DNA of 63,710 nucleotides, counting the filler, from Chrysochromulina tobinii (taxonomy: Eukaryota), in NCBI GenBank assembly GCA_001275005.1. It is 4 parts of 4 records of this genome, joined end to end, with 100 filler letters (N's around TTAATTAATTAA, not from the genome) between each part and the next. Parts side by side here need not be neighbours in the genome. Positions count along the whole stretch, not along the records: positions 47,171 to 63,710 come from JWZX01001079.1; 3 more parts are not named here. One strand, 5' to 3'. Numbering within the stretch: position 1 is the first letter of the stretch; every line of letters begins with the position of its first letter. Below the pieces are notes generated by a model that saw nothing but the letters and a program-made list of their open reading frames with translations, made no database searches and had not been told where the DNA came from. A program made the position numbers and the translations under genes. Positions 39,601 to 63,710 of this stretch are shown here, one piece after another.

Positions 39601-41234
39601 AGAGGGCGGCGGCCGAGAGGGCTGCGGCCGAGAAGGCAGCGGCCGAAAAGGCGACGGCCGAGAAGGCGGCGGCCGAGAAGGCGGCGGCCGAGACAGCGGC
39701 GGCGGCGGCACGTGAGGTGCTGGTGGAGGCGACGGTGCAGTGGGTGATGGCAGAGGCGCTGCAGTTGGAGGCACGGAGGCAGATGGAAGAGAGGCAACGA
39801 AGGGCTGCGGCGGCAGCGGCGGGCCGTCGAAAAGTGCACAAGGCGGCACATGCCATCCGTGCGACGATTCGAATGCATGCCCTAGCAGAGGAGACGAGGG
39901 CCATTTCGAGGGCCGAAAAGGCTGTGCTCATTCGCAAGCTCGCGCTCGAAGAGTCTGCCTACGCTCTCGCCGTCGTCTGGGACCTCGCAATGAAGGAGTG
40001 TGATCTGTTGGCCGCCGAGAGGGTGGCAGCCGAGGCCGCAGCGGCTGAGGCAGCGATGGAGTCCGATCCCAAGATGAGGGCGCTCTTCGACAAGATTCTG
40101 ACGGAGCCGAGTCTCGAGGGCACAACGCTCGTCGACATGATGCGGGCGCTCACGAAGGCTCGTGGGCACGTGGGCCTCGCGTTCCTTCACCTGCAAAGGG
40201 CTCATTCCGAGCCTCGACCAGCATTCATCTCAACAGTAGCACTTCCCTCGGCTCGCACTGAGGCCGAGACTACGGCAGCTAAGGAAGCGGCAGCAAAGAA
40301 GGCGGCGGCTCAGGCAGCTGCGGCCGGCGCGACGGGCGCCGAGGCGCCGCTGCCTGAGGGGTGGATGCAGGTCAAGGCACCCGACGGGCGGACTTACTAC
40401 TTGATTCAGGGAGGCGGCAAGCCGCAGTTCGAGCGTCCGACGGAGCCCGCATCCGCATCGTTCGGCCTATCGGAAGGGCGGATTCCGTTCGGATCGTGGC
40501 CTGCTCGCGGCATGACGCCTTTGGCCTCTCTGCCGCCGCTACCTTCCACTCGACGTACCCAGGCGTGGTACGACCGGCAAGAACAGCTCCAAGAAAGGTT
40601 GAATGCGGGGCGGCTGTTACAGGAGGCTGCTGAGCAGCCTTTGCCGCTTCCAGCCATTGCTGACATCCAGCCTCAGCTGTGGCCCTCGACCACTTGGGCG
40701 GGATACGACTCGGCGAAGCGGATGAGAGGCCGCCACGACGGCAGTAACAGTGCGCACGGAGGCCTGCTTGGGGGGTCAAATGCTGCCGGTGGAGCAACAA
40801 AGCTTATAGACCCGACCTCATTTGAAACGCCCACCGCGCCAAAGGTAGCAGCTACCTCCAAGGCGAGCCCGCGCGTGCGGATAGCGCGCCAACAGGCAGA
40901 GTACAAGGGCGACACTCATCAACCGAAGGAGGCGACAAGCTTGAGCCCCCAGCTGATCTTGCCCAACCTAACACCTCGCTCGGGGATGGGAGCTGCGCGA
41001 ACGGCAATGGAGCGCCAGTTGGCAGCGTACCATGAGATCTACGGACAAGACCAACGTGTTGTCCATCATCACCAGCGGCTCAAGCCAAACTTAGTCAGGC
41101 CTGCACTGTCAGCAGAGACGCGTCCAGAAGCCACACTTCTACCACACGTCAATGTGCTGGGAAGCGGGGCCGGGGGTAAAGGTAAGGGTACAAGTACGAA
41201 AAAGGCGCATGCGTACTTTGAAGCGTATGTATGA
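33645..41234 (+). CDS. 2529-aa multidomain protein: two ARM modules, IQ motifs, tandem cNMP-binding domains, WW domain, Ala/Glu/Lys coiled coils
   Basis: Uninterrupted ORF; IQ-like [11 protein letters not shown] and [12 protein letters not shown]; c[11 protein letters not shown] and [40 protein letters not shown]; (AEKAA)n. Confidence 0.85.
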
Positions 41235-43373: not shown

Positions 43374-46300
43374 GTACTGCAGGGTGCCCGACGAGTCGGT
43401 CGCCACGGTGCCGCCGTACGAGTAGCCGGTGATGCCCTCGATCGTCGTGGTGGTCGCCACGTTGGTCGGCGCGTTGCCGAGCAGGATGAGCCCGCCCCAC
43501 TTGCCGCGCTCGCCGAGCGTGATGGCGTTCTCATTCGAGTCCGTGAAAACGGTGACCGAGCTCGATAGCGCCGACTCGGCAAGCACGGACGTGAACGTGA
43601 TCGGCAGCGAGAACGTGCCCGACGCGCTGATCGAGCCACCCTTCAAGACCACGAGCGCCGGAGCGGGATCCGTGTCCATGACGGGCAGCCCATACACGGA
43701 GGTGCCGGCGGCGATGGTGAGCGTGACGCCCGATTGCACGAAGAGCTGCGAGGCGAGCAGATAAGACGTTGTGTTCGTCCAGGATGCGCTTGCGCTGAGG
43801 GCGCCGCCCACCGCGGCCGCCGTGTCGAGGAGGGTAGCAAAGGGAGCGGCTGGGATGCCAGTGCACGTGGATCCAACCATCTTGCCACTGCACGCCAGCC
43901 ACGAGTAGCCGGCGAGCCAGTTGTCCGTCGAGCTGCCGAACGCGCCCTTGCAGGACACCGACGAGAAGAAGGTGTCGCCGTTGGGGGGTGCGTCCTTGCC
44001 GCTCTGGCAGGCCGCACCAGTCTCCATCGGGAGCGGATTGAATGTGCTGCTCAGCCCCGTGTAATCCAGCATGGACGCTGGCACGTTCGTTAGGCCAGGG
44101 TCAATATTGAGTGCCGAGAAGACCCCAGCGGCGCAATTGGTGCCGAGCGAAATGGGGGTCGCGGCGCCATTGATGATGTTGTTCGGCGAGAAGTACAGGT
44201 ACGTGTTGATCGAAACCGACGCGGCGGGCAGCGAAGACGTGCGCGTCTCGGTGCCGCAGTCATTGTTAAGCAAGCCGACGTCCCGGGCGTTCGTGAGCAC
44301 GATGTTGCCAAACTTGCCGCCCGTGCCCTCGCGCAGGCGCATCAGGCCGCCGGTGCGGCCCGAGGCGCCGCCACCGATGATGGTCATCGAGTAGAAGGCC
44401 GGGTGCGAGCGCGGCAGCGAGTTCAGGTTGCTGTTGGTCATCGAGTCCATCTCTGTGCCGTGGTTGCCACCGAAGCCAGTCATCGCAAAGAGGTACTGGC
44501 CGCGGCCCTGGTACCCCTCATCCGTGTCGAAGGCGTCGTCGATCACGAAGAGCGCCGACAGGTACTTGACGTCGACTGTGCCGCCGAAGAACTCGAAGCC
44601 GTCGTCCGCGTTGAACGCCACCTCGCAGTGGTCGACGACGGTGCCGGAGCCGACGCCGCCGAAGGTGATGCCGTTGATCTCGTTGTTCGCGCCCACGATC
44701 GCGCCGCCGTGCCACACGCGCACGTACTGCATGACGCCCGAGCCGTCGGTCGGCACGGAGCCGCCGTACGTGTAGCCGGTGATGCCCTCGATCTGCGTGG
44801 TGGTCGGCATGTTGGTCGGCGCGTTGCCGAGCAGGATGAGGCCGCCCCACTTGCCGCGCTCGCCGAGCGTGATGGCGTTCTCATTCGAGTCCGTGGAGGC
44901 GGTGGCCGAGCTCACGAGCGCCGACTCTGCAAGCACGGACGTGAACGTGATCGGCATCGTCGCGCTGCCCGTCGCCACGAGCGAGCCGCCCTTCACGACC
45001 ACGATCGCCGGAGCGGGGTCCGTGTCCATGACGGGCAGCCCATACACGGAGGTGCCGGCGGCGATGGTGAGCGTGACGCCCGATTGCACGAAGAGCTGTG
45101 AGGCGAGTAGATAAGACGTTGTGTTCGTCCAGGATGCGCTTGCGCTCAGGGCGCCGCCCACCGCGACCGCCGTGTCGAGGAGGGTAGCAAAGGGAGTGGT
45201 TGGGATGCCAGTGCACGTGGATCCAACCATCTTGCCGCTGCACGCGAGCCACGAGTAGCCGGCGAGCCAGTTGTCCGTCGAGGTGCCGAACGCGCCCTTG
45301 CAGCTCACCGTTGAGAAGAAGGGGTCGCCGTTGGGGGGTGCGTCCTTGCCGCTCTGGCAGGCCGCACCAGTCGCCGTCGGGAGCGGATTGAACGTGCTGC
45401 TCAGCCCCGTGTAATCCAGCATGGACGCTGGCACGTTCGTTAGGCCAGGGTCCACTGTGATTGCCGAGAAGGCCCCGGCGATGCAACCGGTGCCGAACGA
45501 AATGGGGGTCGCGGCGCCATTGATGATGTTGTTCGGCGAGAAGTACAGGTACGTGTCGATCGAAACCGACGCGGCGGGCAGCACAGACGTGCGCGTCTCG
45601 GCGCCGCAGTCATTGTTAAGCAAGCCGATGTCCCGGGCGTTCGTGAGCACGATGTTGCCAAACTTGCCGCCCGTGCCCTCGCGCAGGCGCATCAGGCCGC
45701 CAGTGCGGCCCGAGGCGCCGCCACCGATGATGGTCATCGAGTAGAAGGCCGGGTGCGAGCGCGGCTGCGAGTTCAGGTTGCCGTTGGTCATCGAGTCCAT
45801 CTCTGTGCCGTGGTTGCCACCGAAGCCAGTCATCGCAAAGAGGTACTGGCCGCGGCCCCGGTACCCCTCATCCGTGTCGAAGGCGTCGTCGCCCACGAAG
45901 AGCACCGACAGGTACTTGACGTCGACTGTGCCGCCGAAGAACTCGAAGCCGTCGTCCGCGTTGAAGGCCACCTCGCAGTGGTCGACGACGGTGCCGGAGC
46001 CGACGCCGCCGAACGTGATGCCGTTGATCTCGTTGTTCGCGCTCACGCGCGCGCCGCCGTGCCACACGCGCACGTACCGCATGACGCCCGAGCCGTCGGT
46101 CGGCACGATACCGCCGTACGTGTAGCCGGTGATACCCTCGATCTCCAATGGTGACGACGCCGACGTGGGCGCAAGGCCGAGCACGATGATGCCACCCCAC
46201 TTGCCGCGATTCTCGAGAACGGTGGCGGCGAATTGCGAGTCAGACGAGACCGTTTCGCTCGACGCCCTCTCCGGGTTGAGAGCCGTGAAGGTGATGGGCG

Positions 46301-47070
46301 AAGCCGCAGTGCCATCCGCGATGACCTTGCCGCCCTTCAAGACGACGAGAGCGGGCGCAGCGCCACCGATGGCCTTGGGCGTCGAGTAGATCGTCGTACC
46401 AGCGCCGATCGCAACCGTCTTTCCGCTTGGCACAAACACCTGGCACGTCATCACGTAGATGCGGCCTGGCATCCACGTCACGTCAGTCGTGAGATTGTGG
46501 CTCGGAACACCGGCCGGGCACAGGCTCACAGGCTCCGAGGCCTCAGCAGCAGTGGGGCACGTGTACGAGCTCGACACGAAGCCGCCGTGCGTGTTCACGA
46601 ACGACCAGCCGTTGAGCCAGTTCACGCTGCCAAAGGCGCCCTTGAAGTTGACAGCATCGAAGAAAGGGTCAGCAACCGTGGATGCGGCCACGTCCTCCAC
46701 GTCTTGGAACGCCGCGCCGCCGCACACAGGGCGCGGGTCGAGCGGCAGCGTCGCGGACAGTCCACCGCTCAGTTCGAATCGGCTCCAAAGATTGTGCGCC
46801 GACATGAGCAGCGGGTCCGTCTGCACGGCGGTGAAGCTCAGCAGATCAGTCGAGCACTTGCCGCTCTCGGTGCTGAAGACCGAGCCCGTCCCCGAGGGCA
46901 CACCCGAGATGATGTTCTTGGAGCTGAAGTACAGGTAGTTGAGGACGCTGGGCGTGACGAATGACAGCTGCTGGGTGATCAGGTAGTTGCTGCTCCACGA
47001 GGTGGATGAGCACTGGAGGATCTCGACGCCGATGTTGGTCGGGTTGTCCAGGAGCACATTGATGAACTTG
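43374..47070 (-). CDS. Large extracellular-type beta-helix repeat protein with ~450-aa tandem modules; truncated at both ends
   Basis: Open across the whole contig; module GKWGGLILLGNAP..EG..YGG..DGSGVMxYVRVWHGG..NEINGITFGGVGSGT..DDGFEFFGGTV repeats with a 1350-bp period. Confidence 0.85.
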
Positions 47071-47170: not shown

Positions 47171-48183
47171 CCCCCCCGCCGGCAGCCGCACCGGAGAGCG
47201 CCGCGTCGGGCAGCGCCGTGTCGGGCGCGGAGACCGGCGGGCTCGACGCCGCGCTGCGCGCCAATGTCGAGTCACAGCTCGAGCGGCTTCTGGCGCAGCT
47301 CGAAGATCTGGAAGAGCTCAAGGAGGACCTGTCGGAGGAGGAGTACGTCGAACGGCCTCAAATGGCCTCGGAGTGCCTCTTGATTGCCTCTTGATTGCCT
47401 CTGATTGCGTCTGATTGCGTCTGATGGCCTCGGAGTGCCTCTTGATTGCCACTGAGGACCTCTGAGAACACTTTCGAGTGCCTCCCTCATCATCTCTGAG
47501 TGCCTCCCTCATCATCTCTGAGTGCCTCCCTCATCATCTCTGAGTGCCTCCCTCATCATCTCTGATTGCCTCCCTCATCATCTCTGATTGCCTCCCTCAT
47601 CAGGTACAAGGCGACCAAGGAGGACACACTGGCGCAACTCAAGGAGTTCCAAACGTCCCTCGCCAAGATGGCCTCGGGCTCGATGACGCTGCAGTCGAAC
47701 CTCGAAAAGACGCGGCTCGCCGTCTCGGCGGCCGTCTCCGGCGCCTTCCAGACACCCGAGGTCAGCCGGCCCTTCGCCTCCACGCAGCCCGCCGCATGCA
47801 AGTGCTCACCACGGCGCCCTCCCCTCCCGTTTCCCCACAGGTCATCCGGCTCTTCGCCTCCAAGCAGCCCGCCGCGATGCGCCGCCGGCTCGCCGAGATG
47901 GAGCGAGATGTCAAGCTCGGCAAGCTCGCGGCCGCGGCCTTCGACGGCATGAAGTCCGAGATGCTGGTCGCACTCAAGAAGCTCGGGGAGCCGCTCAGCG
48001 CGAGCGAGGAGGCCTTCCTGGGCGCAAACAAGTCCGCGTCCCTCTCGGAGTTTGAGGCGGTCGATGATAATGCGGACCAGGTGAGCCAGCTGCCGGTGAA
48101 CCTCTGATTGCGTCTGATTGCGTCTGATTGCGTCTGATGGCCTCCCTCATCAGGTGAGCCAGCTGCCGGTGAACCTCTCGTGA
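47171..48183 (+). CDS. LZIC: LZIC (leucine zipper and ICAT-homologous) protein, 5' truncated; introns 47343-47603, 47761-47840, 48081-48153
   Basis: Spliced: NVESQLERLLAQLEDLEELKEDLSEEE|YKATKEDTLAQLKEF..AFQTPE|VIRLFASKQP..LKKLGEPLSASEEAFL. Confidence 0.9.
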
Positions 48184-48690: not shown

Positions 48691-50388
48691 ATGACGACTT
48701 CCGCGTCACAGTGGATATACCCAAGTTTGGCGCTCAACTGCATCTTCTTCGTGCACCTCGTTGTGCGCGGCAATCTTGTCCCATGTAGTGCTGTGCCATG
48801 TTTCGTGGCGACGCCGTCTGCAAGTTCAGAGACCCCGTCTGCGAGGTCAGCGACCCCGTCTGCAAGCTCAGAGGCCGAATCCATGCCTCCAAGGGACCCA
48901 CAGAGTTTGCCAATCTGGGCCAGGTTCGCACGGTATCCAGGGCCCGATTGGAACAAGCTCTTGGCCGACGAGAAGGTGGAGCGAAAACCCCATCGAACTT
49001 CTCCGCCGACGCCGCCGTATCCGCCGCCAGGGCCCACTCAGACGGTTGGTTCGCCAACTTGCACGCATTTGCTGGAGTGCAGCCTCTCCAAGGGTATGCG
49101 GTCCAAGGTGTACCAAGCGTTCCAGAATGGATACACGCACCGGATCCCAGACGAACTTGGATACGAGAATGGCATCCGAGACCTCGCCGACGGCGGCAGC
49201 GAGCTCCTCGTCCCGATTCGAAAGCAAATCATGCCGCCCGCTGCCAACATCCAGCTTGACTGGAAGCCTGCGCCGTGGCCCACACGCATCGATCTCAACC
49301 ACCTCAACTGGGCAGCCCTTCCAAATGGGGAGAGGTTCCGCGAGTGTGGGAAATCGCATGCACTCACTAATGAAGTGCACTTATACTGCAAGTGCGTGCT
49401 CCGCTTGCGTCGACCGTTTGCTCCTGGAGCCCCCACCACCTCGAAGCGGGCGCCTCAGGAGCCGTCCTTTGTTTGCCCGCAGGTTTTTCACAAAGCAGGC
49501 CCTCTTGTGGAATAAGGACTATTGGCCGGGTGCGGAGCCCTACGACGACATCCCCGACCACGTGTTCGATCGGCCAGACGTGCGGCTGGTGCTTGATCTA
49601 GGTGCCGGCAACGGCAACCTCGCCGTCAACTTGTTCCGGCGATATGGCGATCGCGTCATCACGGTGTCCGCCACGCTCATCGTCGCCGCCGAGGCAGGCA
49701 CGCTCACGCCGCCCTTCCTGCAACGGATGACATGCAACTGATTACATGCTGATGACATGCAACTGATGACATGCAACTGATGACATGCTGATTACAGGCA
49801 CGCTCACGCCGCCCTTCATGCAACTGATCGCGGCGCGTGGCTTCCCCACTGTGGCGGTCGACATCTACTCATTCTTCCCCTTTGGTGAATCAACGTTTGA
49901 CGTGGTCCACACGAGCTGGGTCTATCACAGCGGCTTCACGCGCCACGCCATCATGGAGATGTGAGCACTCGCCACGTGATTCCACCCGGGCCTCACAAAC
50001 GCTGTCACGTGATTCGAACCTGGCCTCACAAACACGCTGTGTGCCTGGCTGAGCGGCGGTACCCGATCGGTTCCGTTGGGCAGGTACTGATTACAAATGA
50101 TTACATGCTGATTACATGCTGATTACATGCTGATTACCGTTGGGCAGGTACCGCGTGCTGCGCCCCGGCGGGTACTTGATCCATACGGTGTGGGATAAGA
50201 TGGCCTCCCTCCGGGGCACGCTGCTCCTCGAGTCGCTCGCCGCGAAGATGAATTGGAAGCTTCTCGCTCATTACGAGACCATGAAGGGGCATAATGTCAC
50301 CAAGGCGAGGCTCCGGGGGGACAAGGTGCCCTACGACTGCTACAAGACCGTCTACCAGATGCCGAGCTACAAGTACTCGAAGAGGTAG
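48691..50388 (+). CDS. Type II membrane class I SAM-dependent methyltransferase; introns 49392-49482, 49698-49797 (GC-AG), 49961-50147
   Basis: N-terminal hydrophobic anchor; VLDLGAGNG, PFMQLIAARG, FPFGESTFDVVH, EM|YRVLRPGGYL assembled across introns. Confidence 0.82.
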
Positions 50389-50732
50389 GAAGTCCTGCAG
50401 GTACGTGTGACTCAATACAGGCAAGGTGTGTAGATTCCAACGGGGGCTTTGAGCCACGACACCGGGTCACTGCAATGCCGATGTTCCACAGGCGACAACG
50501 AGCTATTACGTACAGTACATTTCTGTGTTTCTGTGATTTCGAATCGTCTTGATCTGTTTGTCAGTTGGCTGTTGCGCGGTTGTACGATCGGTAATAGTAC
50601 CTACACCCGAGATAGGCCGATGTCCGAACGAAATAGCGTCGTGCCGAGCGTTTTTCGCGTTCAACGCCCTCTCTCGCGACCTCCTTGGCGGGGAAGGCGA
50701 GCTGCTACAGGCTACTAGCCTCGCCGGAATCG

Positions 50733-53700
50733 ATGGCGCGCAAGACGCACAAAAAGTCGCTGCAAGAGTACATGGAAGAGAATGGGATTGGCGTCGGGGA
50801 TCCGGACGACGATGAGGAAAGCGTGGTGGCGCCCATTGTGCAGGAGACGCCGCGGCTCGTCACACGTGCCCTTCGGACGGAGCACCTGCAGCCGCTCATC
50901 GACCTCGTCTTCTCGGACAGCACCGAGGTGCAACGCAACGCGACGCGCTTGCTCGGCACGCTGGCCCTCAACGCCGATAACATCGACATCCTGATCGACT
51001 CTGGCTCGTTGGGGCCGCTGCTGACGATGGCAGGGTCGACCGACTCGTCGGTGCGGCGCGCGGCGCTTGCAGGCCTCGCGCACATGAGCTCACGCGACGA
51101 CATTCGGACGAAGCTTTGCGCGGTGGCCGGCGGGCTCCAGACGGTGGTCGCCGGCGTCACATGCAGCGACGGGCCGTCGAGGTTGGCCGCGGCCGAGTGC
51201 ATGGCCAACATCGCCACCTCCCTGAAGCTGCGTGGGAGGCTGATTGACAGCAAGGTGGGCGGGCTGCCCGCGCTGCTCTCGCTGCTCACGTCGCGCACGT
51301 CCGAGCTCAAGCGCTGGGGCATGCTCACGCTGCAGCGCCTCGCCGTCTGCCGGAAGACCAATGGTGCCATCATCACCACCAAAGACGACCCCGAAGGCGA
51401 CGGTTACGCGGACGAGCTACTTAAGGCAGGCGTGCTGCAGCCGCTGCTCACGATGCTCCGGGCGGGCACGATGAGTCTCGAGGAGGACCTGCGCACGCAG
51501 GCCATGTGCACCGTCTACTCTCTGGCCGACGCGAATGAGGAGATCAAGAAGAAGCTCGGCGAGCACCCGGTGAGGGCCGAGATTTCCCTGAATGACGAAC
51601 CCCTGATGAAACTGTGACGGAACTGTGACGAGCCCGATAGCTCGGCGAGCGCACCCGGTGTGAATGCCTCGACGAGAGCACACGGGCGAGTGTGCCATGG
51701 AGCGCCTTTGAGTGATGAGTGACGTTGATGATGAGTGGCGCTGATGAGTGTCTCTTGATCGCCTCTTGATCTTCCCTTGAGAGCCCCTGATGGCCCCTGA
51801 TGGCCCCTTGAGGGCCCCCTGAGAGCCTCCGATGGCCCCTTGAGGGCCATGGCCCCAGAATTGCAGTGGTCATCAGAATTGCAGGTGCTCGTGAAGGCCA
51901 TTGTGGGCTTGCTGACGACCACTGATTGCCTCTGATGACCACTGATTGCCTCCCTCATCAGGTGCTCATGAAGGCCATAGTGGGCTTGCTCACGCTGGAC
52001 GACCACGCGGGCACCGGCGCGACGCAGCGCGAGGCCTGCCGCACCGTCCAGCTGCTCGCGACGCGCGCCGACAATGTGTATCGCCTCCTCGGCGCTGGCT
52101 TGATCGTTTCACTCTCGATGCTCGCCCGCACCGAGAATCTCATCAAGAAGCAGTTTGCGAGCACGATGCTGCTACGGGTCGCTACGGAAGCGGGCTGCCG
52201 GCGCTCGCTGCTCGATGCCGGTGGCGCGCGCACGCTGTGCTTCCTCTGATTGCCTCTGATTGCCTCTGATTGCCTCTGATTGCCTCTGATTGCCTCCCTC
52301 ATCAGGTGGCGCGCGCACGCTGTGCTTCCTATGCCGCCCGTCGCTTCCTCGCAAGGTCGTCCGTCCCGCGGCGAACGCGATCTCACTGATGTGCAGCTCG
52401 GCCGAGTGCGTGCCGTCGCTGCTCGACACGGGCGCCGGCTCGGTGCTTGCGACGCTCGCGAGCTCGTCCGACCCGGAGATGCTCCTCGGCGGCTGCCAGG
52501 CGCTCGCCAACATGCTCGCGTGCATGGCGGAGGAGGCGGGGACGGTGGCCAAGGCGGTGAACCGCGCGGGCAGCCCGGTTGTGAACCGCGCGGGCAGCCC
52601 GGTTGTGTCGCGCCCCACCTCGCCAATCTCCCAAACCTCGGCCGAAGAAGACGAGGAGCGCCGTCCCGGGCGGGGCGCCACCGAACCGGAGGGGGCGCCG
52701 TCCCGGGCGCCCCCTCCCAAACCGGAGGGGGCGCCCACGAGCGCCGTCTCGAGCGCCGACCCGCTCGGCCGGGTGCGCGAGGCCGTCCGAGTGACCGACC
52801 AGCTGCATGCTGATGGCCTCCCTCATTGCATGCTGATGGCCTCCCTCATCAGGTGCGCGAGGCTGTCCGAGTGACCGACCAGCTGCTTCAGCAAGGCGCC
52901 CTCTCCGTCTTCCTGTCGGCCGCGACCTCCTCCGATCGCCAGCTGCAGCTGCATGCCTCCCGCGGCCTCAAATTCATCGCGATGCGCTCGCCACTCTTTG
53001 CGCGCGTCCTCGCCCGCAAGGGCGCCGCGCGCGCCCTCGCTGCGCTGCTGGGTGCCGCGCGTGAGGAAACGCTCCGGAACGCAGTAACGGCCCTCCACCT
53101 GATCACCACGGCGCTCTGTGAGGGCGTTGGGCGCGAGCCTCTCACGGCCAAGCGTCTCTCGACGGTGCGCGGAGGGCAGCTCTGATGGCATGCTGATTGC
53201 ATGCGGATTACATGCTGATGGCATGGTGATTACATGGTGATTACATGCGGATTACATCTCTGATCGCGTGCTGCTTGCCCATCTGCTCGCGTGCTGCTCG
53301 CCTCCCTCATTGCATGCTGCTCGCCTCCCTGATCAGGTGCGCGGGGTGCTCGAGCTCGGTGTGGTGGGCACACCCAAGGAGCTCTGGGCGCGCCTGAATG
53401 AGGACGGTGGGCTGCCCGCGGCGACGCTCCTTCGGCTCGCATGCCACTTTGAGGGGCTGCACGCCGAGGCGGGGGAGCGCTCGCGAGCGATACTCGAATT
53501 GCTCAAGCCGGGCTTGCTGCAGTCCCTCGACATCGACGACCCAAGACGCGCCAGCCAGTCGGCGAAGGCGATCGCTGAGCGCCGAGGGAGGAATAAATCC
53601 ATCGCCAAGGTCCAGAACCTGTTCCGCCTTTCTCGCAGCCTGAAGCCGGCCGCGGCCGACCCGTTCACCGCGTTCAGCCGACCGACTACCTCGGCGAACG

Positions 53701-54435
53701 CCACGGGCGCCGCCTCGGGCGCGGCCTCGAACTTTGCGTCGCTCGTGCGCGCGGCCAAGCTGGGCAACGGGCTCGTGGCGAACGACTCGCCGCGCTGGGC
53801 CAAGGCGTGGGGAGGCGCCTTTGGGGCCAAGGCGGGCTCGGCCGCGGCTGCCTCGGTACTGAACGCGCAAGCGACAGGCGCGGACGCGATCTCGAAGCTA
53901 ACCCTAACCCTAACCCTAACCCCAACCCTGACCCTAACCCTGACCCTGACCCTAACCAGGCGCGGACGCGCTGTCGAAGCTCAAGGAGGCCGCGGCCCAC
54001 GCACGGAAGGCGTCCCAAGAGGCCGGTCCCAAGTTCAAGTCGCTCGCGGCCGCTGCAGGCGCCCACGATGGCGCGGGGAAGCGGACGCTCTTCGCGATCC
54101 TGCACCAGCCTCGCCCGCCCGCGACGGCGCGTCCCGAGGCGAGCGGCGCACGCGCGCGAGCGGTCAGCCTCCTGGGAGCAGAGACCGCCTCGTCCTCAGC
54201 CGAGCCAGCCCAATCCGAAGCGCCAGGTGCGCCAGGAGCGCCGGCGGTCACCAAAGAGAGGCACACCGGTAGGCCTCCTGCTTTGGGATTGTGGCTCGGC
54301 GGCGCCGTCGGCACGAGCAGCGCTGCTGGAGCAGCTGCTGGGGCGATGGTGGTGGCGGCGCCCGAGAAGGAGAAGCGGATCTCGGCAGTGCGGCGCGCTC
54401 AGATGACTCTCGAGGCCCAGGATCTGACGCTTTAA
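50733..54435 (+). CDS. Armadillo-repeat protein; introns 51570-51961, 52221-52305, 52773-52852, 53165-53336, 53878-53959 (GC-AG)
   Basis: ARM repeats (LQPLIDLVFSDSTEVQRNATRLLGTLA, GGLPALLSLLTS); the five introns give a continuous frame to TAA at 54433-54435. Confidence 0.82.
53900..53959 (+). repeat. Interstitial telomere-type (CCCTAA/CCCTGA)n array forming the body of an intron
   Basis: AACCCTAACCCTAACCCTAACCCCAACCCTGACCCTAACCCTGACCCTGACCCTAACCAG. Confidence 0.92.
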
Positions 54436-54660
54436 GCGGGCGGGATTTCTTTTTTAGCTTGTCGACTAGTCAGAACTCGGACACTTGTACGGTAGGTGTG
54501 CGGTGTCCACAAAGATGTGTAAAAGATGTGCGGTGTTCACAAAATCCATCCCCCACCCCCTTCCCCCCTACGCATGCAAGAGTTTCCCACAGCCTGTGTT
54601 CACGCCGTGACTCGCGCGAAGGCGTGATTAGGCGCTCGCGGCCGAAAACAAGCGGGGGAA

Positions 54661-55881
54661 ATGCCCCGACCACCGCCACCGCCGGCTATGGACGTCGAGG
54701 ACATCCTCGTGCGCATGCGGCAGATGCTCAAGAAGCGTGGTGCGGTGGGCATCAGGGGACTGACGAGAAACTTTCAGATCTGCGACACCGACAAATCGGA
54801 GAAGCTCAACCTCGCCGAGTTGACTAAATGCGTCAACTTGTGCAAGCTCGACCTCTCGCAAGAGGAGGTCCGCGCACTGCACCGCCATTTCGATTCGTCC
54901 GGCGACGGACTGGTGAGCTTCGACGAGTTCGTCAAGACAGTGCGCGGTCGGATGAGCGAGCCACGCAAGAAGCTCGTGATCAAGTGCTTTGAGGCTCTCG
55001 ACCAGGCAGGCGACGGCAACGGCCAGCTGTCGGTGGCCGACTTGAAGCCGTACTTCAACGTCGAGCACGATCCTCGCTTCCTCACGGGCGAGAAGACGGC
55101 ACACGAGCTCCTCCAGGAGTTTGTCGACGGGTTCGAGCGAGGCCAGGGAGGCGGAGACGGCGTCATCGGCATCGACGAGTGGATCGGCTATTATGAGGAG
55201 CTGTCAGCGGGGATCGACGACGACGACTACTTCGGTGTGATGCTAGTGAACGCGTGGAGTGCACTGAAGAAAAAAGGGCCGAATGGCGAGGAGGTGCCAG
55301 CCATCCAGTATGTGTGCGAGGGCGACATCGACGTGCTCGAGCAGATCCTTCGGAAGAACATCTTCCAAAAGTCGGTCGGTACGAATGAGGTGCGTGCGCT
55401 GAAGGAGACGTTCAAGCGCTTTGACCAGGACAATAGCGGCGAGGTCAACTTTCGCGAGTTTTGTCGAGCGATGGAGTGCTTCGGGCTCTCCGTGTCGCAG
55501 CCTGGTCAAAAGGGCTCTGGAGGCGTGCCGCCCGATGTGCTGCGCGGCCTCTTCAACCGTTACAACACTGACGGGTCCGAGTGCATCAGCTACCTCGAGT
55601 TTACGAGCGGGCTGTTCCAGCGTGAGGCGGAGGCGCGGAGCAGCGACCCCGCGTTCACCACTGGCAACGGCGCCAATCTCACGCTGCCAAACCTCGTGCG
55701 CGACTATGATGCCGTGGCCGCCTCGGCAGCAGGGCTCGCACCACCGCCGCGCTGTATGCCTGACACGCGGAAATCACCCCTCCTCCGACCCGACGGTAAA
55801 GGGGGGAGCCTTGGCAATTACCCAGTGCGGCCCGATCGCGTCGTACGTCCCGAAGAGCGGGCGAAGGGCTTCTTCCGGTAA
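54661..55881 (+). CDS. Calcyphosin-like multi-EF-hand protein
   Basis: RGAVGIRGL..F...D, FDSSGDGLVSFDEF..VRGRMSEPRK, LDQAGDG, DGVIGIDEWIGYYEELSAGIDDDDYF, plus an extra EF pair FDQDNSGEVNFREF. Confidence 0.9.
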   Translation: MPRPPPPPAMDVEDILVRMRQMLKKRGAVGIRGLTRNFQICDTDKSEKLNLAELTKCVNLCKLDLSQEEVRALHRHFDSSGDGLVSFDEFVKTVRGRMSEPRKKLVIKCFEALDQAGDGNGQLSVADLKPYFNVEHDPRFLTGEKTAHELLQEFVDGFERGQGGGDGVIGIDEWIGYYEELSAGIDDDDYFGVMLVNAWSALKKKGPNGEEVPAIQYVCEGDIDVLEQILRKNIFQKSVGTNEVRALKETFKRFDQDNSGEVNFREFCRAMECFGLSVSQPGQKGSGGVPPDVLRGLFNRYNTDGSECISYLEFTSGLFQREAEARSSDPAFTTGNGANLTLPNLVRDYDAVAASAAGLAPPPRCMPDTRKSPLLRPDGKGGSLGNYPVRPDRVVRPEERAKGFFR

Positions 55882-56335
55882 CGGAGAGGAGCGGAGTCAG
55901 TCGGTAACCCTAACCGGAAGCGCATACCGCGATGTTCGTCGAGCTGGTTGCCTTATATAAGCTCTGAGTCTCTGTACACTCTCGGAGCTGCGCCTCGGAT
56001 CGTAAGAAGTAGCGGGGACTAGTGGTTGAGCTTATAGTTTCAAAATCCGGACTTATAACGTAAAACGTAAAAGTCAAAACGGCATATCTCGGGATACCGG
56101 TTACCGCTTCGTTCGATCGCAATTGTGAATTGACTAGCGTATACGACCGTATTACGTTAATAGCGGGTCCGAGTGTAGACGCTGCCTGTCGTCTCCCTGC
56201 AGGAGGCGTGAGTAGGAGATGCACACATCGGGTGATGACGTGAGGCGCGGTCGAGAGACGTGCCGCAGCTGCACACCTGTGCGTCTAGAATGATCTTGAA
56301 TGATCGTGCGCGTCGTCTGGCGGCCGCGGCGTGGG

Positions 56336-59300
56336 TCATTGCCGCAGCGTGACATAGGGCGGCTCATCGTTGGCGCAGCGGCAGAAGCCGCATGGCACGA
56401 TCGCCATCAGATCGGCTGGAGGGCGGAGAGTGCCCTCCTTCCCGCGGCACTGGTAGCACGCAGAGGGCAGGTTGCAGTTGTTTGCACGGCCCGTGTCGCT
56501 TCCTAATTTGGCACGGCCCGTGTCGAGCGCGGCCGACTGGTTGTTCCAGAGCTGCTTGAACTCGTGCGGCAGGTGGTCGATGGTCTTGGCGCACCTGATG
56601 AGGGGGTGGGGTGTCGGAGGCCATCAGACGCAATCAGCGGCCATTAGCGGCCATCAGCGGCCATCAGCGGCCATCAGCGCACTGGTAAGAGTAGACGTTC
56701 CACTCGGCCTGCTGGCTGAACCAGCACTGTGCATACTCGGGGTGTCGCGCCATGATGTCTCGTCGGTTGCGCGCAAATTGGGCACAGTTCCATGCAGTGT
56801 AGAGGCCAGTGAAGATCGGGTCGTGGCGCGCGCGCTGGTTGCCCGGGTGCTTGACCACAGAGTCGCCCGTGACGAAGTGGAACGTGAGCCGCGGCGAGAG
56901 CAACGCCATCCGACAGCCCGCGTGCGCATGCAACGCCTGCATCAGGTCCGTTGCGATCATTGAGACGCCCACCTGATGAGGGAGGCAATCAGTATGCCAT
57001 CAGAGAGGCAATCAGCATGCCATCAGAGACGCCCACCTGATGAGGGCTCGCCATCATTCGCCATCATTCGCCATCATTCGCCATCAATCGTCATCATTCG
57101 CCATCATTCGCCATCAATCGTCATCATTCGCCATCATTAGTCATCAATCGTCATCACCATTGTGAAACCGAGTGAGAGCTGCGGCACCCAGCGGCGCGGG
57201 AAGGTCCAACAGTCGTGACCTGGATGGGCGAGGCCCGTCCCACGCCATCCGAGAGCTTGCTCCACGCCGAAGGTGACGGGAGCGTGCTCGTACTCCTCTC
57301 TGATGAAGCTGATTGGAATGTCGGGCATCAGCTGTGCCAACGGGTAGAACGGGTAGGGGGAGGGGCGAGAGGGAGGGCAGGGGAAGGGGGTGACGAGGAG
57401 GGAGGTAACCTCAGGAGCACACCCAAAGCACATCGGGAGCTCATCGGGAGCTCATCGGGAGCTCATCGGGAGCTCATCGGGAGCTCATCGGGAGCTCATC
57501 GGGAGCTCATCGGGAGCTCACCTGCAGCTGACGCGCGAGCTTGAGGTAGAACGGCGCCTGCACGCCAATGTCGATGTTTGAGTACGTCAGGTGCTCTCCC
57601 TCGCCCTTGAGGTAGCCGGCGTACCTGATGAGGGAGGCAATCGGATGCAATCTCCTGAGGGGCGGCGTAACTGATGAGGGAGGCTTTTTGATGCGAGCGG
57701 CCATCCGAGGCCATCGGTGGCAATCAGCAGGCAAACCACGTACAGGATCATGTTGAGGAAGGGGAGCTTGGCGTGATGACGGAAGCTCGGGAGCAGCGTC
57801 GCGACCGACACGTTGAGCAGCGCGACGGCGAAGCCCTGCTGTGCGCACTGCGGCAGCCGGGCAGCGTCTTCGGGGAACATGGCGCAGACCACATCGACGC
57901 GCACGCCCTGGGTGTTTGCGAGGGCGACGGCGTGCGAGATGGAGGCGATGGTGATCTCTTGCGCGCGCGCATGCTCGGCGTCGTGCTCGGAGTAGAACGG
58001 GTTGATCACGTGCGTGATCGAGATGTTCTGCGCGCGCCGCGGCGGCGCCGCACGCGCCGCCCACTCGGAGAACCAATGCTCAGCACGGCGCGGCGGCTCG
58101 GGCTGCAGCACGCGCACGACTGGCTGGCGGACGAATTCTTGGGTCCACGCGCCGCAGCAGCGTGGCGGCTCGGCGCTCGACTTTGCCTCGCGGAGTCGTG
58201 TCTCGATGAAGGTCTTGCGCACCTGGACAGAAGGAGGCGCGCCATCAGCGGCAATCAAGGGAGATCGCACCTGGACAGAGGGGGCGCGCCATCAGCGGCA
58301 ATCAAGGGAGATTGCACCTCGTCCGACCAGGCGGAGGTCGTGCCACCGTCCATCGGCGCTGTCGCATTGCTCTTCTTCTTGGGCTTCGCCTTGAGGGAGA
58401 GGGTGAAGGCGCGCTGTACCGAGCTGATGGGTACCTCAAGGAACTCGGCCAACGGCGCCGGGTACCTGAAGCAAGGGGGGCGCCGTGGTGGGCATGGGTG
58501 CCGTTAAGGCGCCGTGGTGGGCATATGCATGCCGTGGCGGGTACTTGAAGCAAGGGGGGCGCAATCAGCGGCCATCCGCGGCAATCGGCTGTCGTCAGTG
58601 GAACTCAGAGGCACTTAGAGACACACAGAGGCACTCAGTGGCACACAGAGGCCGTCAGAGGCCATCAGAGGCACTCAGTGGCACCCAGAGGCGCTCAGGT
58701 GCACTTCGGCGCACCGCTCAGGGCGCAAAAGCATGTCCGTGTAGTTGACGACGCGGTACTCCTCCGCGCGGAGCATCTGCAGCTGTGAATACATCTGGTC
58801 GAGCTGTGACAAGAAGAGGCTCACCTGTGGTTGGCGTAGTGCGTGGCGCCGTGGTGAGCACATGCATGCCGACGCGTGCACGCGCGCCGTGGTGAGCATG
58901 CGCATGCCGACGCGTGCGCTCGCTGTGACATGAGGCGAGGCGAGGCGAGGCGGCTCTCACCTGCTGGATATCATCAGAGGTCATCAGGGAGGTCATCAGA
59001 TGTCATCAGCGAGGCGAGGCGGCTCTCACCTGCTGGATATCATCAGAGGTCATCAGGGAGGTCATCAGATGTCATCAGCGAGGCGAGGCGGCTCTCACCT
59101 GCTTGTGCAGCTTGAAGGTGCGGCCAGCCCGCCGCCAGATCTTTGGGAGCCCGCGGTTGTTCATCGACATGATCGCGTCGATCGGGTCGCGGTACAGCAC
59201 GATCACCTTGAGCCGCACGCCGAGCAGGTCGCACATGTACACGATGTCCGCCAGGTCGGGGTAGTGGGTTCCGTCCTCGGTCTCGTTCGACGAGCGAGAA

Positions 59301-60166
59301 AAGGGATACGAAAACATCTGGCCTACGGGCTGGAAGGAGCCGTTATTGGATCGGCCGTCCAGCAGCTGGCCCGCCAGCTGCTGCTGCATCCCGCTGATCC
59401 ACGAGCAGTGCCGCTGACGCGAGATGCGGAAGCACGTGCGCGCGCAGAAGGCGGGGTGCTTGTGGTGCGAGTGGGCCTGACGGACCCATTCGGCGAAGGC
59501 CTCGAGGGCGGCCCAGAACGTGGCTGGGTCGTGGTGCTTCGGGTCCCACCAGAGCGACTGGAACACCTGCTCCTGCACCAGCGACATGGGCATCAGCTCG
59601 GGCAGCCGCATCATGAGCGCGGTGATGAAGTGGTGGCCTGTGCCCTCGGCGCCGGCGACGAAGACAAGCTGCCGTTGGCTATCGCTGAGCGGCTTGCTGT
59701 GGTCGGCGGGCTGCTGGGGCTTCACGTACGGCCGCCAGAAGGATGTGTCGAGCGGCGTCTCGATGGACGCGCGCCGCTTCACGACCTCGAGGAAGGCCTC
59801 CTGCTGCGCCTCGGCCGAAAGCCGCTGCGGAGGCGGAGGCGGAGGCGGGCTGCTGAGATCGGGCGGCGTTGGAAACCCGGTGGGCGAGAGGGAGGAGGAA
59901 AAGGAAGATGGTGATGATGATGAGGAGGAGCTGATGTGGTCCACGGTTGGGAGCAGAAGCTCGTGCTGCAGCAGCACGCACGACAGCGCCGCAGCCGAGA
60001 GCGACGCGGTCGCGAGCATCATGAGCTTGACGACGCCGAGTGGCGCCTCGCACTCGCGATCGGCGCGACGGTCGTGGCGGGCATGCTGGGCGGGGAGCAG
60101 GCGGCTGGAGGAGGCGGTGGAGGAGGTGGTGGTGGCGGTGGCGGCTGCGTCGGAGAGCGTGGGCAT
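56336..60166 (-). CDS. Type II membrane protein with a sulfotransferase-like domain and a second, possibly glycan-modifying, domain; introns 58825-59098, 58466-58714, 58223-58317, 57625-57743, 57332-57521, 56973-57157, 56595-56682
   Basis: TM anchor; PAPS-loop-like FVAGAEGTGHH and KVIVLYRDPIDAIMS; frame restored across seven GT-AG introns to TGA at 56336. Confidence 0.75.
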
Positions 60167-60390
60167 AGAGGCGGAGCCAAGTCGGTGTGAAGGGGTGAAG
60201 AGATTTGTTGAGGGTCACCCCTTTACACACGAGAGCACGAATTACATGTATGGCTCCTCTGCTCAAGAGTCGCTACGCACGAAGTGTGGTGGCGAACCTT
60301 TGATACCGAAGATGCTCGGCAACTGTTTGGGGTTCGCAAGTTAGCATGCGATTATAAGTTGTTGATCGCAAGTGTTGGAGGATACTTTCC

Positions 60391-60463
60391 TTCCCTATAG
60401 TCTAGTTGGTTAGGATAACCCGCTTTCACCGGGTCGACCTGGGTTCGAGTCCCAGTGGGGAAA
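60391..60463 (+). tRNA. tRNA-Glu (anticodon TTC)
   Basis: Acceptor TTCCCTA/TGGGGAA; D-arm; anticodon stem ACCCG/CGGGT with CT-TTC-AC loop (60425-60427); T-arm CTGGG-TTCGAGT-CCCAG. Confidence 0.93.
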
Positions 60464-60824
60464 AAAAAAAACTTGCTTCCTTTGTCAACCTCTTTTGCAC
60501 CTGTCCGGATCCGACGAGTCCCAGTGGGTCCGGATCCGTGCGAAATGACGCGCCCCGGGCGGCCTCCCCGCCCCCGCGCCCCCGGGTGCGGGCGGTGGGC
60601 CCGCCCCCGCGTTGGGGTCGTGGCTCGTGCCGCGCCGCGGGGGGAACCATGCCGCATGCGGGGATGGGGGAACTCTTACTAAACCGGGCGGCGTGGGATC
60701 TAGAGCATCTTTGGCCCGTTCGATTACGATTTCGTCCTATAAGTATCACCAAAACAATGCGCAGCATGCGTGTATGGGGCACGGTAGCCGCGACGCCCCT
60801 CGTGTGTCCTCTGAGTCCACCTTC

Positions 60825-63710
60825 TCAACTGAGAGAAGTTTTCTCGAGCGCGCCGCTCAGCTTGCTTGTTGCCCCATCGGCGCCGTCGCGGGCGGCGCGC
60901 GCCGCGCCGAGCGCACTCGAGAGGTGGATGATCCACAAGTTACGTTCCTCCTCAGTCGGGGCGGCAAGCACGACGCCGCCGTCGGGCGCGCCGTCCCGAG
61001 CGGTGAGGCGGAACGCGTAGGGCAGATTGTCCGACGGAGGCTGCGACGACCAGTCATCAGAGGTCGTCAGAGGTCATCAAAGGTCATCAGAGGTCATCAG
61101 AGGTCATCAGGGCAGATTGTCCGACGGAGGCTCTGGGGAAATGGGTGCTACGACCAGTGGGGCAGGGGAGGGGGCGCCCAGGACGACGCACGGTTGAGGC
61201 GCGCGTCAGCACAGATCAGAACGCGGCGCCGCCACGCGCGCTCGCGGCACTGTGGGGAGATCGGGGAGATCGATGGGAGATCGATGGGAGATCGATGGGA
61301 TAAGAGGGGGTCGCGTCGTCCCGGGCAGCGCACCGTGGCTTGCTCCACCCGATCGAAGCCGGAGAGCGGTACGATGCCGCGCGCGTGCTGCGGAGGGTCG
61401 TCGGCGTTCTGGTAGTACACGATCGTGCCCTCGTCGCGCAGGCGGAAGTGGCGAGCGACCCAATCCCGTGCCTGCCCTGTCTCCGCCTCGCTCCGCTGCG
61501 CAATGTGCACCTGATGAGGGAGGCAATCAGCATCCCATCAGAGAGGCAATCAGAGGCCATCCTGATCGAGCAGTCTCCGCCTCGCTCGCACTGATGAGGG
61601 AGGCAATCGGCATCCCATCAGAGATGCACTCGGCACCTTGGAGGCTCGCTTATAGAGGAGGCCGCTCAACTCGGTGCCTCGCGATGTGGCGTCTTCGGCC
61701 GCACTGGCGGAGCTACTCGGTACTTTGATGACCTCTGATTGCCTGGCATGAGTGGAAACTCCCCCGCCGGCGGTCGCGGCGGTCGCGACGGGCAGCGGCG
61801 AAGAGGGCGGCGCCACGGCGGACGAGGAAGCCGACAGCTGCGCGCCACAGGCGCAGAGGACGCGTATCCAGTCATCGCGTTCCCGCGCCGAGTCCGACGC
61901 GAGGTGGTACCTGATGAGGGAAGCCATCCGAGGTCATCAGAGGTTATCAAGAGGCAATCAGGTGAGCGGTGCCTGATGAGGGAAGCCTTTAGGGAAGCCA
62001 TTCCTCGGAGGTCACATCAGAGGCACCACTCGGCAGGTCATCCGAGGTCATCCGAGGTCATCCGAGGCCATCCGAGGTCATCCGAGGTCATCCGAGGTCA
62101 TCAGGGGCCATGCGTACGTCCGATTGCTCGTGTGCACCGCAAACGAATAGTGGCGGGCAAGCGAATTCTCTCCCTCGCCATGAGGCTGGATGATCAGTGG
62201 CGTGGGCCGCGCGCCGGCGCCATTGCTCATCACGGCGCTATGGCTCGACTCGCGACCACCGTTGGTGCCGCCGCCGCCGCTGCCGTGCGCCACGGCCGCG
62301 CCCGCACCGCCGTGGTGAGCACTTGCATGCGCGGGAGCGGCCGCGCCCGCACCGCCGTCGGGTGCCGTGGCGCCATAGTGGGCGCCGTAGTGGGCGCCGC
62401 TGCTCAGCTCGGCGCCGCTGTCAGACTTGCCGAACGCCCTTACACTGGCTGACGGGCTCGAGCCGCCGCTGATCGAGATGACGCCGAGAGAGAGGGGGCG
62501 GGGCGTCGTGGTGAGCGCTTGCATGCAACGCACGCCATCAGAGGCAATCAACGCACCTGCTCGAGCGGCACCCACTCCAACTTCTGATGAGGGACACAAT
62601 CACATGCAATCAGAGGCACTCAAGGCACCTGATCGAGATGACGCCGAGAGGCTGGAATGGGTTGGACATCTCGGCCGCGTAGTAGTAGAAGAGCTCGCCG
62701 TCGCACAGGCAAAAGTAGCGCCTCTTCCAGGACGGGACCCGCCGCCCCTTTTTGTAGAGATGGCCCTGCGAACCGAGGCCACGGGATGCGATGAGATGAA
62801 TTGGGAGATGCGATGAGATGCATTGGGAGATGCGATGAGATGCATTGGGATGCGATGAGATACGCCGAGTGACCACTCCGGGGTCACTCGGCGTCAGAGT
62901 GGTCACTCGGCGTCACTCAGCCGTCACTCAGCCGTCACTCTGCGGCCACTCAGCGGCCGCTCTGAGGAGCTCTCAGCGGCACCCACCTGCTTGGTGCACA
63001 CTCGATGGAGTGACTGGTGCAGCGCCGTCTCGTCTTCGCCGAACTCGGCGCCGTGTTGGGCGTCTGCCTCCACAAAGTAGCAGAAGAGCGACGAGGCCGC
63101 CAGCGCCGGGATGGCCACGCACTGCTGCAGGTAGCGCTCGAGCGCCACGCGTCGCTCCTCGACGAAGCTCGGGTGAAGGTTGCCGAAGGCGCGCTTCGCT
63201 GGGAGGGCCTGCGGCACTAGCGGGCCGAACTCCTTGCGCAGCAGCTGGTCCAGCAGGTTGAAGTGCTTGTACCTGTGGGGAGAGGCGAGGGCGCCGTGGT
63301 GAGCGCGTGCATGCACGGCAGGCCATCAGCATGCAATCAACGTACCGTCGCTCGGAGCGAGAGAGGGCGCCGGGGTGAGCGCTTGCATGCACGGCAGGCC
63401 ATCAGCATGCAATCAACGTACCGTCGCTCGGATCGCAGCGTCGTCTGCACGCCGTGCACGAGCAGCACGGAGTCGACCAGGTACGTGACGTACTCGTTGC
63501 CATGCCCACCCTCGCGCTGACGCTGGGTACCGGCGAGGCGCACCGAGTGGAGCACAACGTCCTTTGATCGCGCACGCAGCTCGGTGCCCGTCGGCGACAA
63601 GGGCGGCCCTCGCCCCTCGAGCGCCGTGGTGAGCGCCTCGTCGCCCGCGTGCATGCCCACACCGATCGTGAGCGCTGTGGTGAGCAGCCCGCCGCCGAGC
63701 TCACCACGGC
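60825..63710 (-). CDS. PX + two PH domain protein, 5' end beyond the window; introns 63273-63421, 62766-62986, 62469-62628, 61911-62117, 61511-61636, 61041-61333
   Basis: PX: YVTYLV..ERR|YKHFNLL..LPAKR..FVEERRVALERYLQ; PH1: GHLYKKGRRVPSWKRRYFCL..RT|YHLASDSARERDDWI; PH2: SGLLYKR..WVARHFRL..LAAPTEEERNLWI. Confidence 0.87.

Follow-up and report, generated by a model that had tools for sequence, protein, structure and literature searches.

Why do several introns in one stretch of the Chrysochromulina tobinii genome carry two copies of their acceptor, and was the process that duplicated them aimed at 3' splice sites? We addressed this question in a window of 63,710 nucleotides (nt) from GenBank assembly GCA_001275005.1, the window being the whole stretch of DNA that was analyzed. 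The initial annotation had listed five duplicated acceptors in the last contig and had read them as the result of insertions that repeatedly hit existing 3' splice sites. Our results suggested that the duplications were probably left by error-prone DNA repair that copied 30 to 100 nt from another intron, mainly the spliceable products being kept. All five pairs were present where the initial annotation had placed them:

Case 1: 50073-50087 and 50137-50151, plus strand, a 15-nt repeat (11 nt of intron and 4 nt of exon) with 0 mismatches and a period of 64.
Case 2: 51882-51917 and 51959-51994, plus strand, a 36-nt repeat (CAG and 33 nt of exon) with 3 mismatches.
Case 3: 57046-57026 and 56982-56962, minus strand, a 21-nt repeat (10 nt of shared acceptor and 11 nt of exon).
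Case 4: 58562-58538 and 58483-58459, minus strand, a 25-nt repeat (18 nt and 7 nt) that straddles the acceptor, with one mismatch.
Case 5: 61132-61109 and 61042-61019, minus strand, a 24-nt repeat (AG and 22 nt of exon).

Each pair had the layout X-filler-X, where X is the duplicated target. In case 1, the duplication straddled the acceptor of intron 49961-50147 in a methyltransferase-like gene, and the filler was (CTGATTACATG)n, which had no splice site of its own. Case 2 was hosted by intron 51570-51961 of an armadillo-repeat gene; its old acceptor was not one of the family acceptors described below, the stranded 33-nt exon start had 3 changes, and the filler ended in CCCTCATCAG at 51961. 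In case 3, a different filler had re-hit a family acceptor and stranded an 11-nt exon start, and the acceptor at 56973 alone kept the frame. In case 4, the single mismatch abolished the upstream AG, and the filler belonged to a second family (CACCACGGCGCC type). Case 5, in a PX/PH-domain gene, had an old acceptor, a stranded 22-nt exon start without GT, and a (CTGATGACCT)n filler. The proximal site retained an intact AG/GT (the slash marks the splice junction) in cases 1 to 3, which might allow recursive splicing there. An anchored 11-mer would occur by chance within 150 nt with a probability of about 1e-4.

In all five cases, the reading frame was kept by the downstream acceptor only. Using that acceptor raised the scores against three homologs from 98, 100, and 61 to 194, 210, and 133 in case 2 and from 128, 124, and 119 to 295, 281, and 258 in case 3, and in tblastn searches with homologs the alignment breaks coincided with the downstream-acceptor junctions in cases 2 to 4. 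RNA junction evidence came from 15 listed joints of 301, most of them repeat noise. Among these, 61334 was joined to 61040 in RNA contigs X1 and X2, which placed the downstream acceptor of case 5 (61041) in use; no junction for cases 1 to 4 was found among the 15 joints. RNA joints supported removal by splicing for six introns of the last (PX/PH) gene, and splicing of the remaining introns was deduced from reading frame and homologs. Unspliced RNA contigs spanned case 2 (X1, 0 differences) and case 4 (X15, 18 other letters and no gap), so an assembly artefact is unlikely.

To place these cases in a larger sample, metagenome contigs were scanned for a 20-nt acceptor motif, which yielded at least 129 loci from this organism and close relatives and, with the window, 731,260 non-redundant bases. 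One locus (L124) was identical to the window across 428 nt. Because loci were picked on the acceptor motif, the sample favors acceptor-type events. The motif had 0 matches in viral contigs and 0 in prokaryote genomes. In the 731 kilobases (kb) of this motif-picked sample, the shared 3' motif CC[CT]TCATCAG occurred at 336 sites, indicating many dispersed similar introns, and 175 of these sites were terminal, that is, a family acceptor followed by coding-like sequence. An exon-start copy was anchored upstream of 73 of the 175 terminal acceptors, compared with a null mean of 0.1 (20 shuffle swaps). The recurrence of such events at existing acceptors, noted in the initial annotation, was thus far above chance.

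Automatic classification divided the 73 into 34 with exon upstream (new introns; median X of 25 nt), 30 nested events with a foreign filler, and 9 local tandem copies. When the 30 nested events were read by hand, an older acceptor lay directly upstream in 22 (17 of the filler's own family and 5 unrelated); of the other 8, one had plain exon and seven had an exon-end copy upstream.

The 9 tandem copies among 39 nested events, together with the window examples at 58218-58319, 58940-59103, and 63287-63432, would fit a simple account in which ordinary tandem duplication of local sequence spanning a splice site, followed by array slippage, produced the duplicated acceptors. However, the other 30 had fillers unlike their upstream sequence, cases 2 and 3 included. 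In the window, the spacer was unlike the immediately upstream sequence in all five cases (scored for cases 2 and 3, by eye for cases 1, 4, and 5), and these are therefore not plain tandem duplications. Local tandem duplication also cannot create introns within exons or move sequence between loci. Because traced filler-template pairs (below) link separate loci, this account is refuted in general and holds for a minority of events; as an explanation of the whole pattern, we regard it as highly improbable.

Repeats were also collected without anchoring. These lists were noisy (375 of 668 rows were read) and were filtered to 328 rows, all of which were read. Hand classification gave 140 events, 132 from the filtered list and 8 from the noisier one, and the rest were set aside as tandem re-duplications, repeats within arrays, or unclear cases. 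The 140 comprised 61 new introns of type A (X starts with GT or GC, and the filler ends in AG), 20 new introns of type B (the exon end is duplicated, and the filler starts with GT), 34 donor-side events, 18 events nested at acceptors, and 7 straddling acceptors. Because the X-filler-X layout also occurred inside exons, at donors, and in mirror form, acceptors are one class of site among several. The view that the events are insertions with target duplication, which lengthen old introns (nested events) and also make new ones (exonic type A and B events), was upheld.

The duplication ranged from 13 to 56 nt and the filler from 27 to 134 nt, and both varied freely. Their lengths were anti-correlated (r = -0.59), which fits a minimum intron size that would cause it. 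The 5' end of the filler was variable, with no defined element termini or length (the exception, at locus L026, is a whole-intron copy), and the terminal inverted match was 0 to 1 nt in 55 of 61 fillers, which left no terminal inverted repeat (TIR). At least three unrelated kinds of filler, one of them telomere repeat, shared the same geometry. The 20-nt family end (52286-52305, and all family acceptors) starts with CTGAT and ends with ATCAG and so reads as a putative small inverted repeat that includes the AG. At L059 (plus strand, 1092-1200), the donor lay 9 nt inside the duplication, an arrangement that would add three codons instead of none.

The shared 3' end at 336 sites would also be expected if a non-autonomous transposon, or introner, inserted at AG/GT and into earlier copies and left a target-site duplication (TSD) longer than usual. 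The available text of PMC9860276 reports TIR-less introners with 4-bp TSDs in Chrysochromulina sp., and the whole-intron copy at L026, which has a 6-nt duplication, would look like an introner. Nevertheless, duplication length, filler length, and 5' end were not fixed, the fixed 3- to 9-nt TSDs and/or TIRs of a DNA-transposon introner were not found, and the unrelated filler kinds, telomere repeat among them, had the same geometry. Fillers also contained pieces of other loci's exon copies. An introner origin therefore seems unlikely to us.

We then considered whether the 3' splice site is itself the target. The initial annotation had proposed a preference for AG/G junctions, and such a preference was evident. 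Before type A donors, G was present in 52 of 61 cases (background, 31%), AG in 28 of 61 (8.4%), and CAG in 13 of 61 (1.6%); after type B acceptors, G was present in 14 of 20 (background, 41%; P = 0.008). Selection for donor strength could account for part of the type A bias. What did not hold up was the special status given to 3' splice sites. Donor-side events outnumbered acceptor-side events, 34 to 25 among the 140, despite sampling on an acceptor motif. The intron share of the donor-side duplications had a median of 5 nt, a value shortened by trimming at array motifs and not used for judging targeting.

Rates per site pointed in the same direction. Exonic AG/GT sites had 11 events per approximately 1,370 sites (3.42 per kb across 402 kb of coding sequence), unrelated acceptors had 5 per 250 to 400 sites (an estimate extrapolated from a hand count of approximately 38 introns in the window), and family acceptors had 17 per at least 175 sites. 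The rough excess over exonic AG/GT, uncorrected for selection and sampling bias, was approximately 2-fold for unrelated acceptors and 10-fold for family acceptors. The 2-fold excess needs no targeting because exonic events must splice at once and repeat hits are nearly neutral, and the 10-fold excess matches the longer homology (10 to 25 nt) that family acceptors share with the template.

In favor of a process that specifically targets existing 3' splice sites via the spliceosome or the AG, an older acceptor immediately preceded 22 of the 73 anchored events, which had a foreign filler, and by hand reading 5 of these older acceptors were non-family. In addition, exact exon-start hits on unrelated acceptors (about 6 to 7) equaled straddling events (7 listed, some probably local tandem), and straddling has many more possible positions. 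However, 17 of the 22 repeat hits fell on acceptors of the filler's own family, and the one at L127 was traced to another locus through shared acceptor homology. We consider specific 3' splice site targeting doubtful and view the acceptor duplications as homology-favored, selectively tolerated repeat hits of a wider process. The stranded AG was lost in 5 of the 22 re-hit acceptors, a weak hint of selection only.

Where, then, do the fillers come from? Six could each be traced to one particular other intron, either within the same gene or outside it. The L019 filler (48/48 nt; next best, 19) and the L087 filler (39/39; next best, 23) were exact 5'-truncated copies of intron ends lying 590 nt and 202 nt farther upstream in their own genes. 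At L026, a whole 100-nt intron had been copied 2.87 kb away via 9 nt and 4 nt of homology; the source intron had originated by copying of its own exon, and the copied site had the 6-nt duplication only. The second filler at L127 started with the tail of a stranded exon copy from L068, a different gene, and was entered via 7 nt of homology; this insertion is a repeat hit on a family acceptor with its parent identified, the switch lying inside the shared acceptor homology. The L052 filler matched L099 at 38 of 38 nt, and the L105 filler matched L001 at 56 of 60 nt.

In the four scored pairs, the match extended 4, 6, 5, and 8 nt into the exon of the template (P = 0.36, 0.015, 0.10, and 0.003), above chance in two (P = 0.015 and 0.003) and not in the other two (0.36 and 0.10). 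Because the match runs into the parent's exon, the template would consist of intron plus exon, either DNA or unspliced pre-mRNA. An excised lariat or other excised intron RNA was considered as template and is disfavored by the long duplication and by homology that reaches into the exon of the template; no template ending at GU and AG was seen to be inserted seamlessly. Microhomology to the array averaged 1.27 nt at the left junction (null, 0.32; n = 22) and 2.11 nt at the right junction (null, 0.35; n = 27), both nulls being approximate. The best-matching array was a neighbor in 18 of 290 cases compared with 2.9 expected, indicating that local templates are favored and are not the rule. The proposal in the initial annotation that insertions prime on shared sequence fits the traced pairs.

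In the repair mechanism that we propose, the target X would be duplicated when a break has staggered ends or when a nascent strand leaves its template and returns 13 to 56 nt behind. Between the two copies, an end would anneal by a few bases to another intron, often across its AG/GT or G/GT, copy part of that intron, and rejoin by a second microhomology; telomere repeats would be usable as filler, possibly through telomerase. Exonic events would be kept only if cleanly spliced, as type A, as type B, or with an X holding AG/GY. Events at existing splice sites would be nearly neutral, and family acceptors, with their 10 to 25 nt of homology, would be re-hit, stranding the old acceptor and exon start. 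The X-filler-X repeat could then grow by ordinary tandem duplication.

The anatomy of the events, their frequency, the template pairs, the junction microhomology, and the use of downstream acceptors in RNA from the last gene support this mechanism directly. Microhomology at both junctions and traceable templates (six pairs) are what break-repair insertion predicts. A break and a repair polymerase would be parts of this mechanism, and the template may be DNA or unspliced pre-mRNA. According to the available text of PMC5730883, breaks with overhangs give tandem duplications and sometimes templated inserts, and the available text of PMC2246262 describes telomere repeats entering breaks with in-register microhomology, sometimes with target duplication.

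Several observations weigh against the repair mechanism. Arrays less than 1 kb apart had the same orientation in 173 of 174 neighboring pairs, a result that rests on neighbor concordance and the window genes (a codon-model strand classifier misassigned known window introns). Arrays were found in 4 of 65 non-coding gaps longer than 600 nt (52 kb), approximately 10 sites being expected; all four gaps appeared by eye to be complex introns, which left 0 arrays in the 61 others. In the window alone, 0 arrays lay in 10.3 kb of gaps compared with 2.6 expected, a difference that was not significant (P = 0.07). Because plain DNA repair would be expected to act regardless of strand or genes, the single orientation and the absence from gaps count against it, and the insertion in either orientation and at any genomic place that is characteristic of break repair was not observed. 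Selection may account for part of this pattern. Among clear fillers, no foreign exon longer than 2 nt was seen by eye past the filler's AG, and a DNA template should sometimes give longer tails. Most fillers had no traceable template in this small motif-picked sample (filler starts outside arrays mostly had no traceable source), the distinction between the old and the new copy of X was inferred without an empty allele, and the templated inserts in the available text of PMC5730883 were in cis, whereas three of our six pairs were between loci.

These observations bear on a possible, if less probable, alternative in which, at a break in a transcribed gene, a reverse-transcribing enzyme extends the template-strand end by copying unspliced pre-mRNA or telomerase RNA, in the manner of target-primed reverse transcription and tied to transcription or splicing. 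This alternative overlaps the repair mechanism and differs from it in the template and in true targeting to genes and splice junctions. It would explain the one orientation of the arrays, their absence from long intergenic-like gaps, the enrichment of local templates, and fillers that end at AG without long foreign exon tails, and the stronger microhomology at the right junction is where a primer would be expected. Telomere-repeat fillers had the C-rich strand in the sense of nearby arrays in 3 of 3 cases, and two ended in the family acceptor motif. However, host-intron homology and selection are able to impose a sense orientation, the telomere fillers number only three, the orientation evidence has the limits given above, and the excised-lariat form is disfavored by the homology into the template's exon. 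A broader version, in which introns spread without any transposon as breaks in transcribed genes are mended on unspliced pre-mRNA or telomerase RNA primed across splice junctions, is likewise tentative. The single orientation of the arrays and their absence from long non-coding gaps may reflect a link to transcription. At L070 (minus strand, 2222-2500), two neighboring introns had telomere fillers mixing CCCTAA and CCCCTAA, each with a family acceptor end.

The window contained further events, the first three of which are duplicated acceptors missing from the initial annotation:

57617..57684, minus strand, duplicated acceptor 57671/57625.
61500..61600, minus strand, duplicated acceptor 61591/61511, where part of the exon-start copy is deleted; 61511 is the one used in RNA.
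61906..61987, minus strand, duplicated acceptor 61973/61911; RNA uses 61911.
52220..52330, plus strand, new 85-nt exonic intron 52221-52305, in which a 25-nt exon copy supplies GT.
52772..52886, plus strand, new 80-nt intron 52773-52852 with a 34-nt duplication.
47759..47875, plus strand, new 80-nt intron 47761-47840 with a 35-nt duplication and a filler of the second family.
49695..49828, plus strand, new 100-nt GC-AG intron 49698-49797, whose duplication contains both splice sites (CAG/GC).
53875..53981, plus strand, new 82-nt GC-AG intron 53878-53959 with a telomere-repeat filler, (CCCTAA/CCCTGA)n.
48078..48178, plus strand, donor event (48081) with a 25-nt intron start duplicated.
58940..59103, minus strand, donor event (59097) followed by an exact 69-nt tandem re-duplication.
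62469..62650, minus strand, mirror type (62629/62469) with a 22-nt exon end duplicated, spliced in X1.
58218..58319, minus strand, a whole 47/48-nt intron in tandem across AG/GT.

At 61511 and 61911, the acceptor used in RNA (contigs of two runs) was the downstream one. The filler of intron 52221-52305, (CTGATTGCCT)n, supplied the branch point and the AG, and the filler at 48078..48178 resembled an array 713 nt upstream within the same gene. In the mirror event, GT began the filler and AG came from the copy. Inside the 160-nt intron of that event (62469-62628), 27 nt on the minus strand (62557-62583) lay between an AG and a GT. Their inclusion would preserve the frame, the X1 contig skips them, and they are possibly a micro-exon or a decayed exon copy. 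The pair at 58218-58319 reads as two complete abutting introns with no exon between them, a candidate for recursive splicing. Behind an ankyrin-repeat gene (21230-21420, plus strand), 11/12-nt repeats and telomere-like TACCCTAAT units formed another X-filler-X layout, apparently a 3' untranslated region intron.

The window is eukaryotic, with a GC content of approximately 63%, and consists of contigs joined by N linkers. The only named homolog was an Emiliania protein, consistent with a haptophyte-like alga. Introns of Emiliania may be rich in 10- to 11-nt repeats, on which the available text of PMC2784329 is silent. The last contig (47171-63710) carried methyltransferase-like, armadillo-repeat, EF-hand, one unnamed, and PX/PH genes; Pfam methyltransferase matches on an upstream exon of the first were weak and below the cut-off. 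These last 16.5 kb were dense in array introns, and events looked clustered by gene; across the metagenome loci, event density fell only mildly with distance. Long stop-free frames of up to 7.6 kb lacked array introns (33646-41232, plus strand; 1960-6460 and 43380-47060, minus strand). A tRNA-Glu (TTC) gene was located at 60391-60463 on the plus strand. An element of approximately 1.08 kb at 12850-13932 looks like a non-autonomous DNA transposon; its 91-nt terminal inverted repeats are 91% complementary, and its interior carries 11-nt repeats of the GATACAT type in either orientation.

How does this process compare with known systems? Introners, as described in the available text of PMC9860276, bioRxiv 10.1101/2020.10.14.339549, and PMC12130899, carry in one splice site and take the other from the TSD, in both arrangements, and a class with both sites from the TSD is also described. 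The likeness lies in families of similar introns and in this division of the splice sites; the difference is that the introners in those texts have fixed TSDs of 3 to 9 nt and defined ends, whereas here the duplication varied from 13 to 56 nt, fillers were truncated intron pieces or telomere repeats, and repeat hits at existing splice sites were common. Break-repair intron gain is a listed model in the available text of PMC3296678. In known intron gain by direct repeats and filler, the filler between repeats likewise becomes the intron and a duplicated AG/GY gives the splice sites; the filler of those scattered events is mixed or unknown, whereas here it was mostly existing intron ends, so that introns seed introns in large numbers.

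End joining at overhang breaks (PMC5730883) shares the duplication of tens of bases, junction microhomology, and templated inserts; in its available text the events are occasional, in cis, and in mouse cells, whereas ours also ran between loci, had one orientation, and were confined to introns. Interstitial telomeric insertions, as far as the available text of PMC2246262 goes, likewise put telomere repeats into a break, joined by in-register microhomology and in some cases with a duplicated target; here the C-rich strand would contribute CTAAC branch points, making the insert a predicted intron (3 cases). Exon stuttering on avian dot chromosomes (available text of PMC12954441) also leaves exon-edge copies in repeat-rich introns, the repeats there being local, and fungal stwintrons (available text of PMC8469720) are likewise nested at splice elements, with the difference that they integrate without a TSD. 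A literature search, with subscription papers outside its scope, found no long variable duplications combined with truncated intron copies in haptophytes; the Chrysochromulina family lists in the supplements of introner papers lay outside that search and may include this family.

Taken together, the process is a variant of intron gain by templated insertion that is real and recurrent. How new spliceosomal introns arise is not yet settled, and for most gains no source can be traced. The events described here, numbering in the hundreds and recent, have a readable footprint (duplication, template, and both junctions) and parents can be named, so that break-repair and intron-to-intron copying models become testable by counting. 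Some introner families without transposon ends may find a new explanation in this process, which also provides natural pairs of competing acceptors, 45 to 110 nt apart, for studies of 3' splice site choice. If the RNA-templated reading were true, each intron would both template the next one and be a hot spot for it, and intron gain would be transcription-coupled and self-amplifying, with traceable parent-daughter pairs. The process would create new introns and add splice sites to old ones without any transposon.

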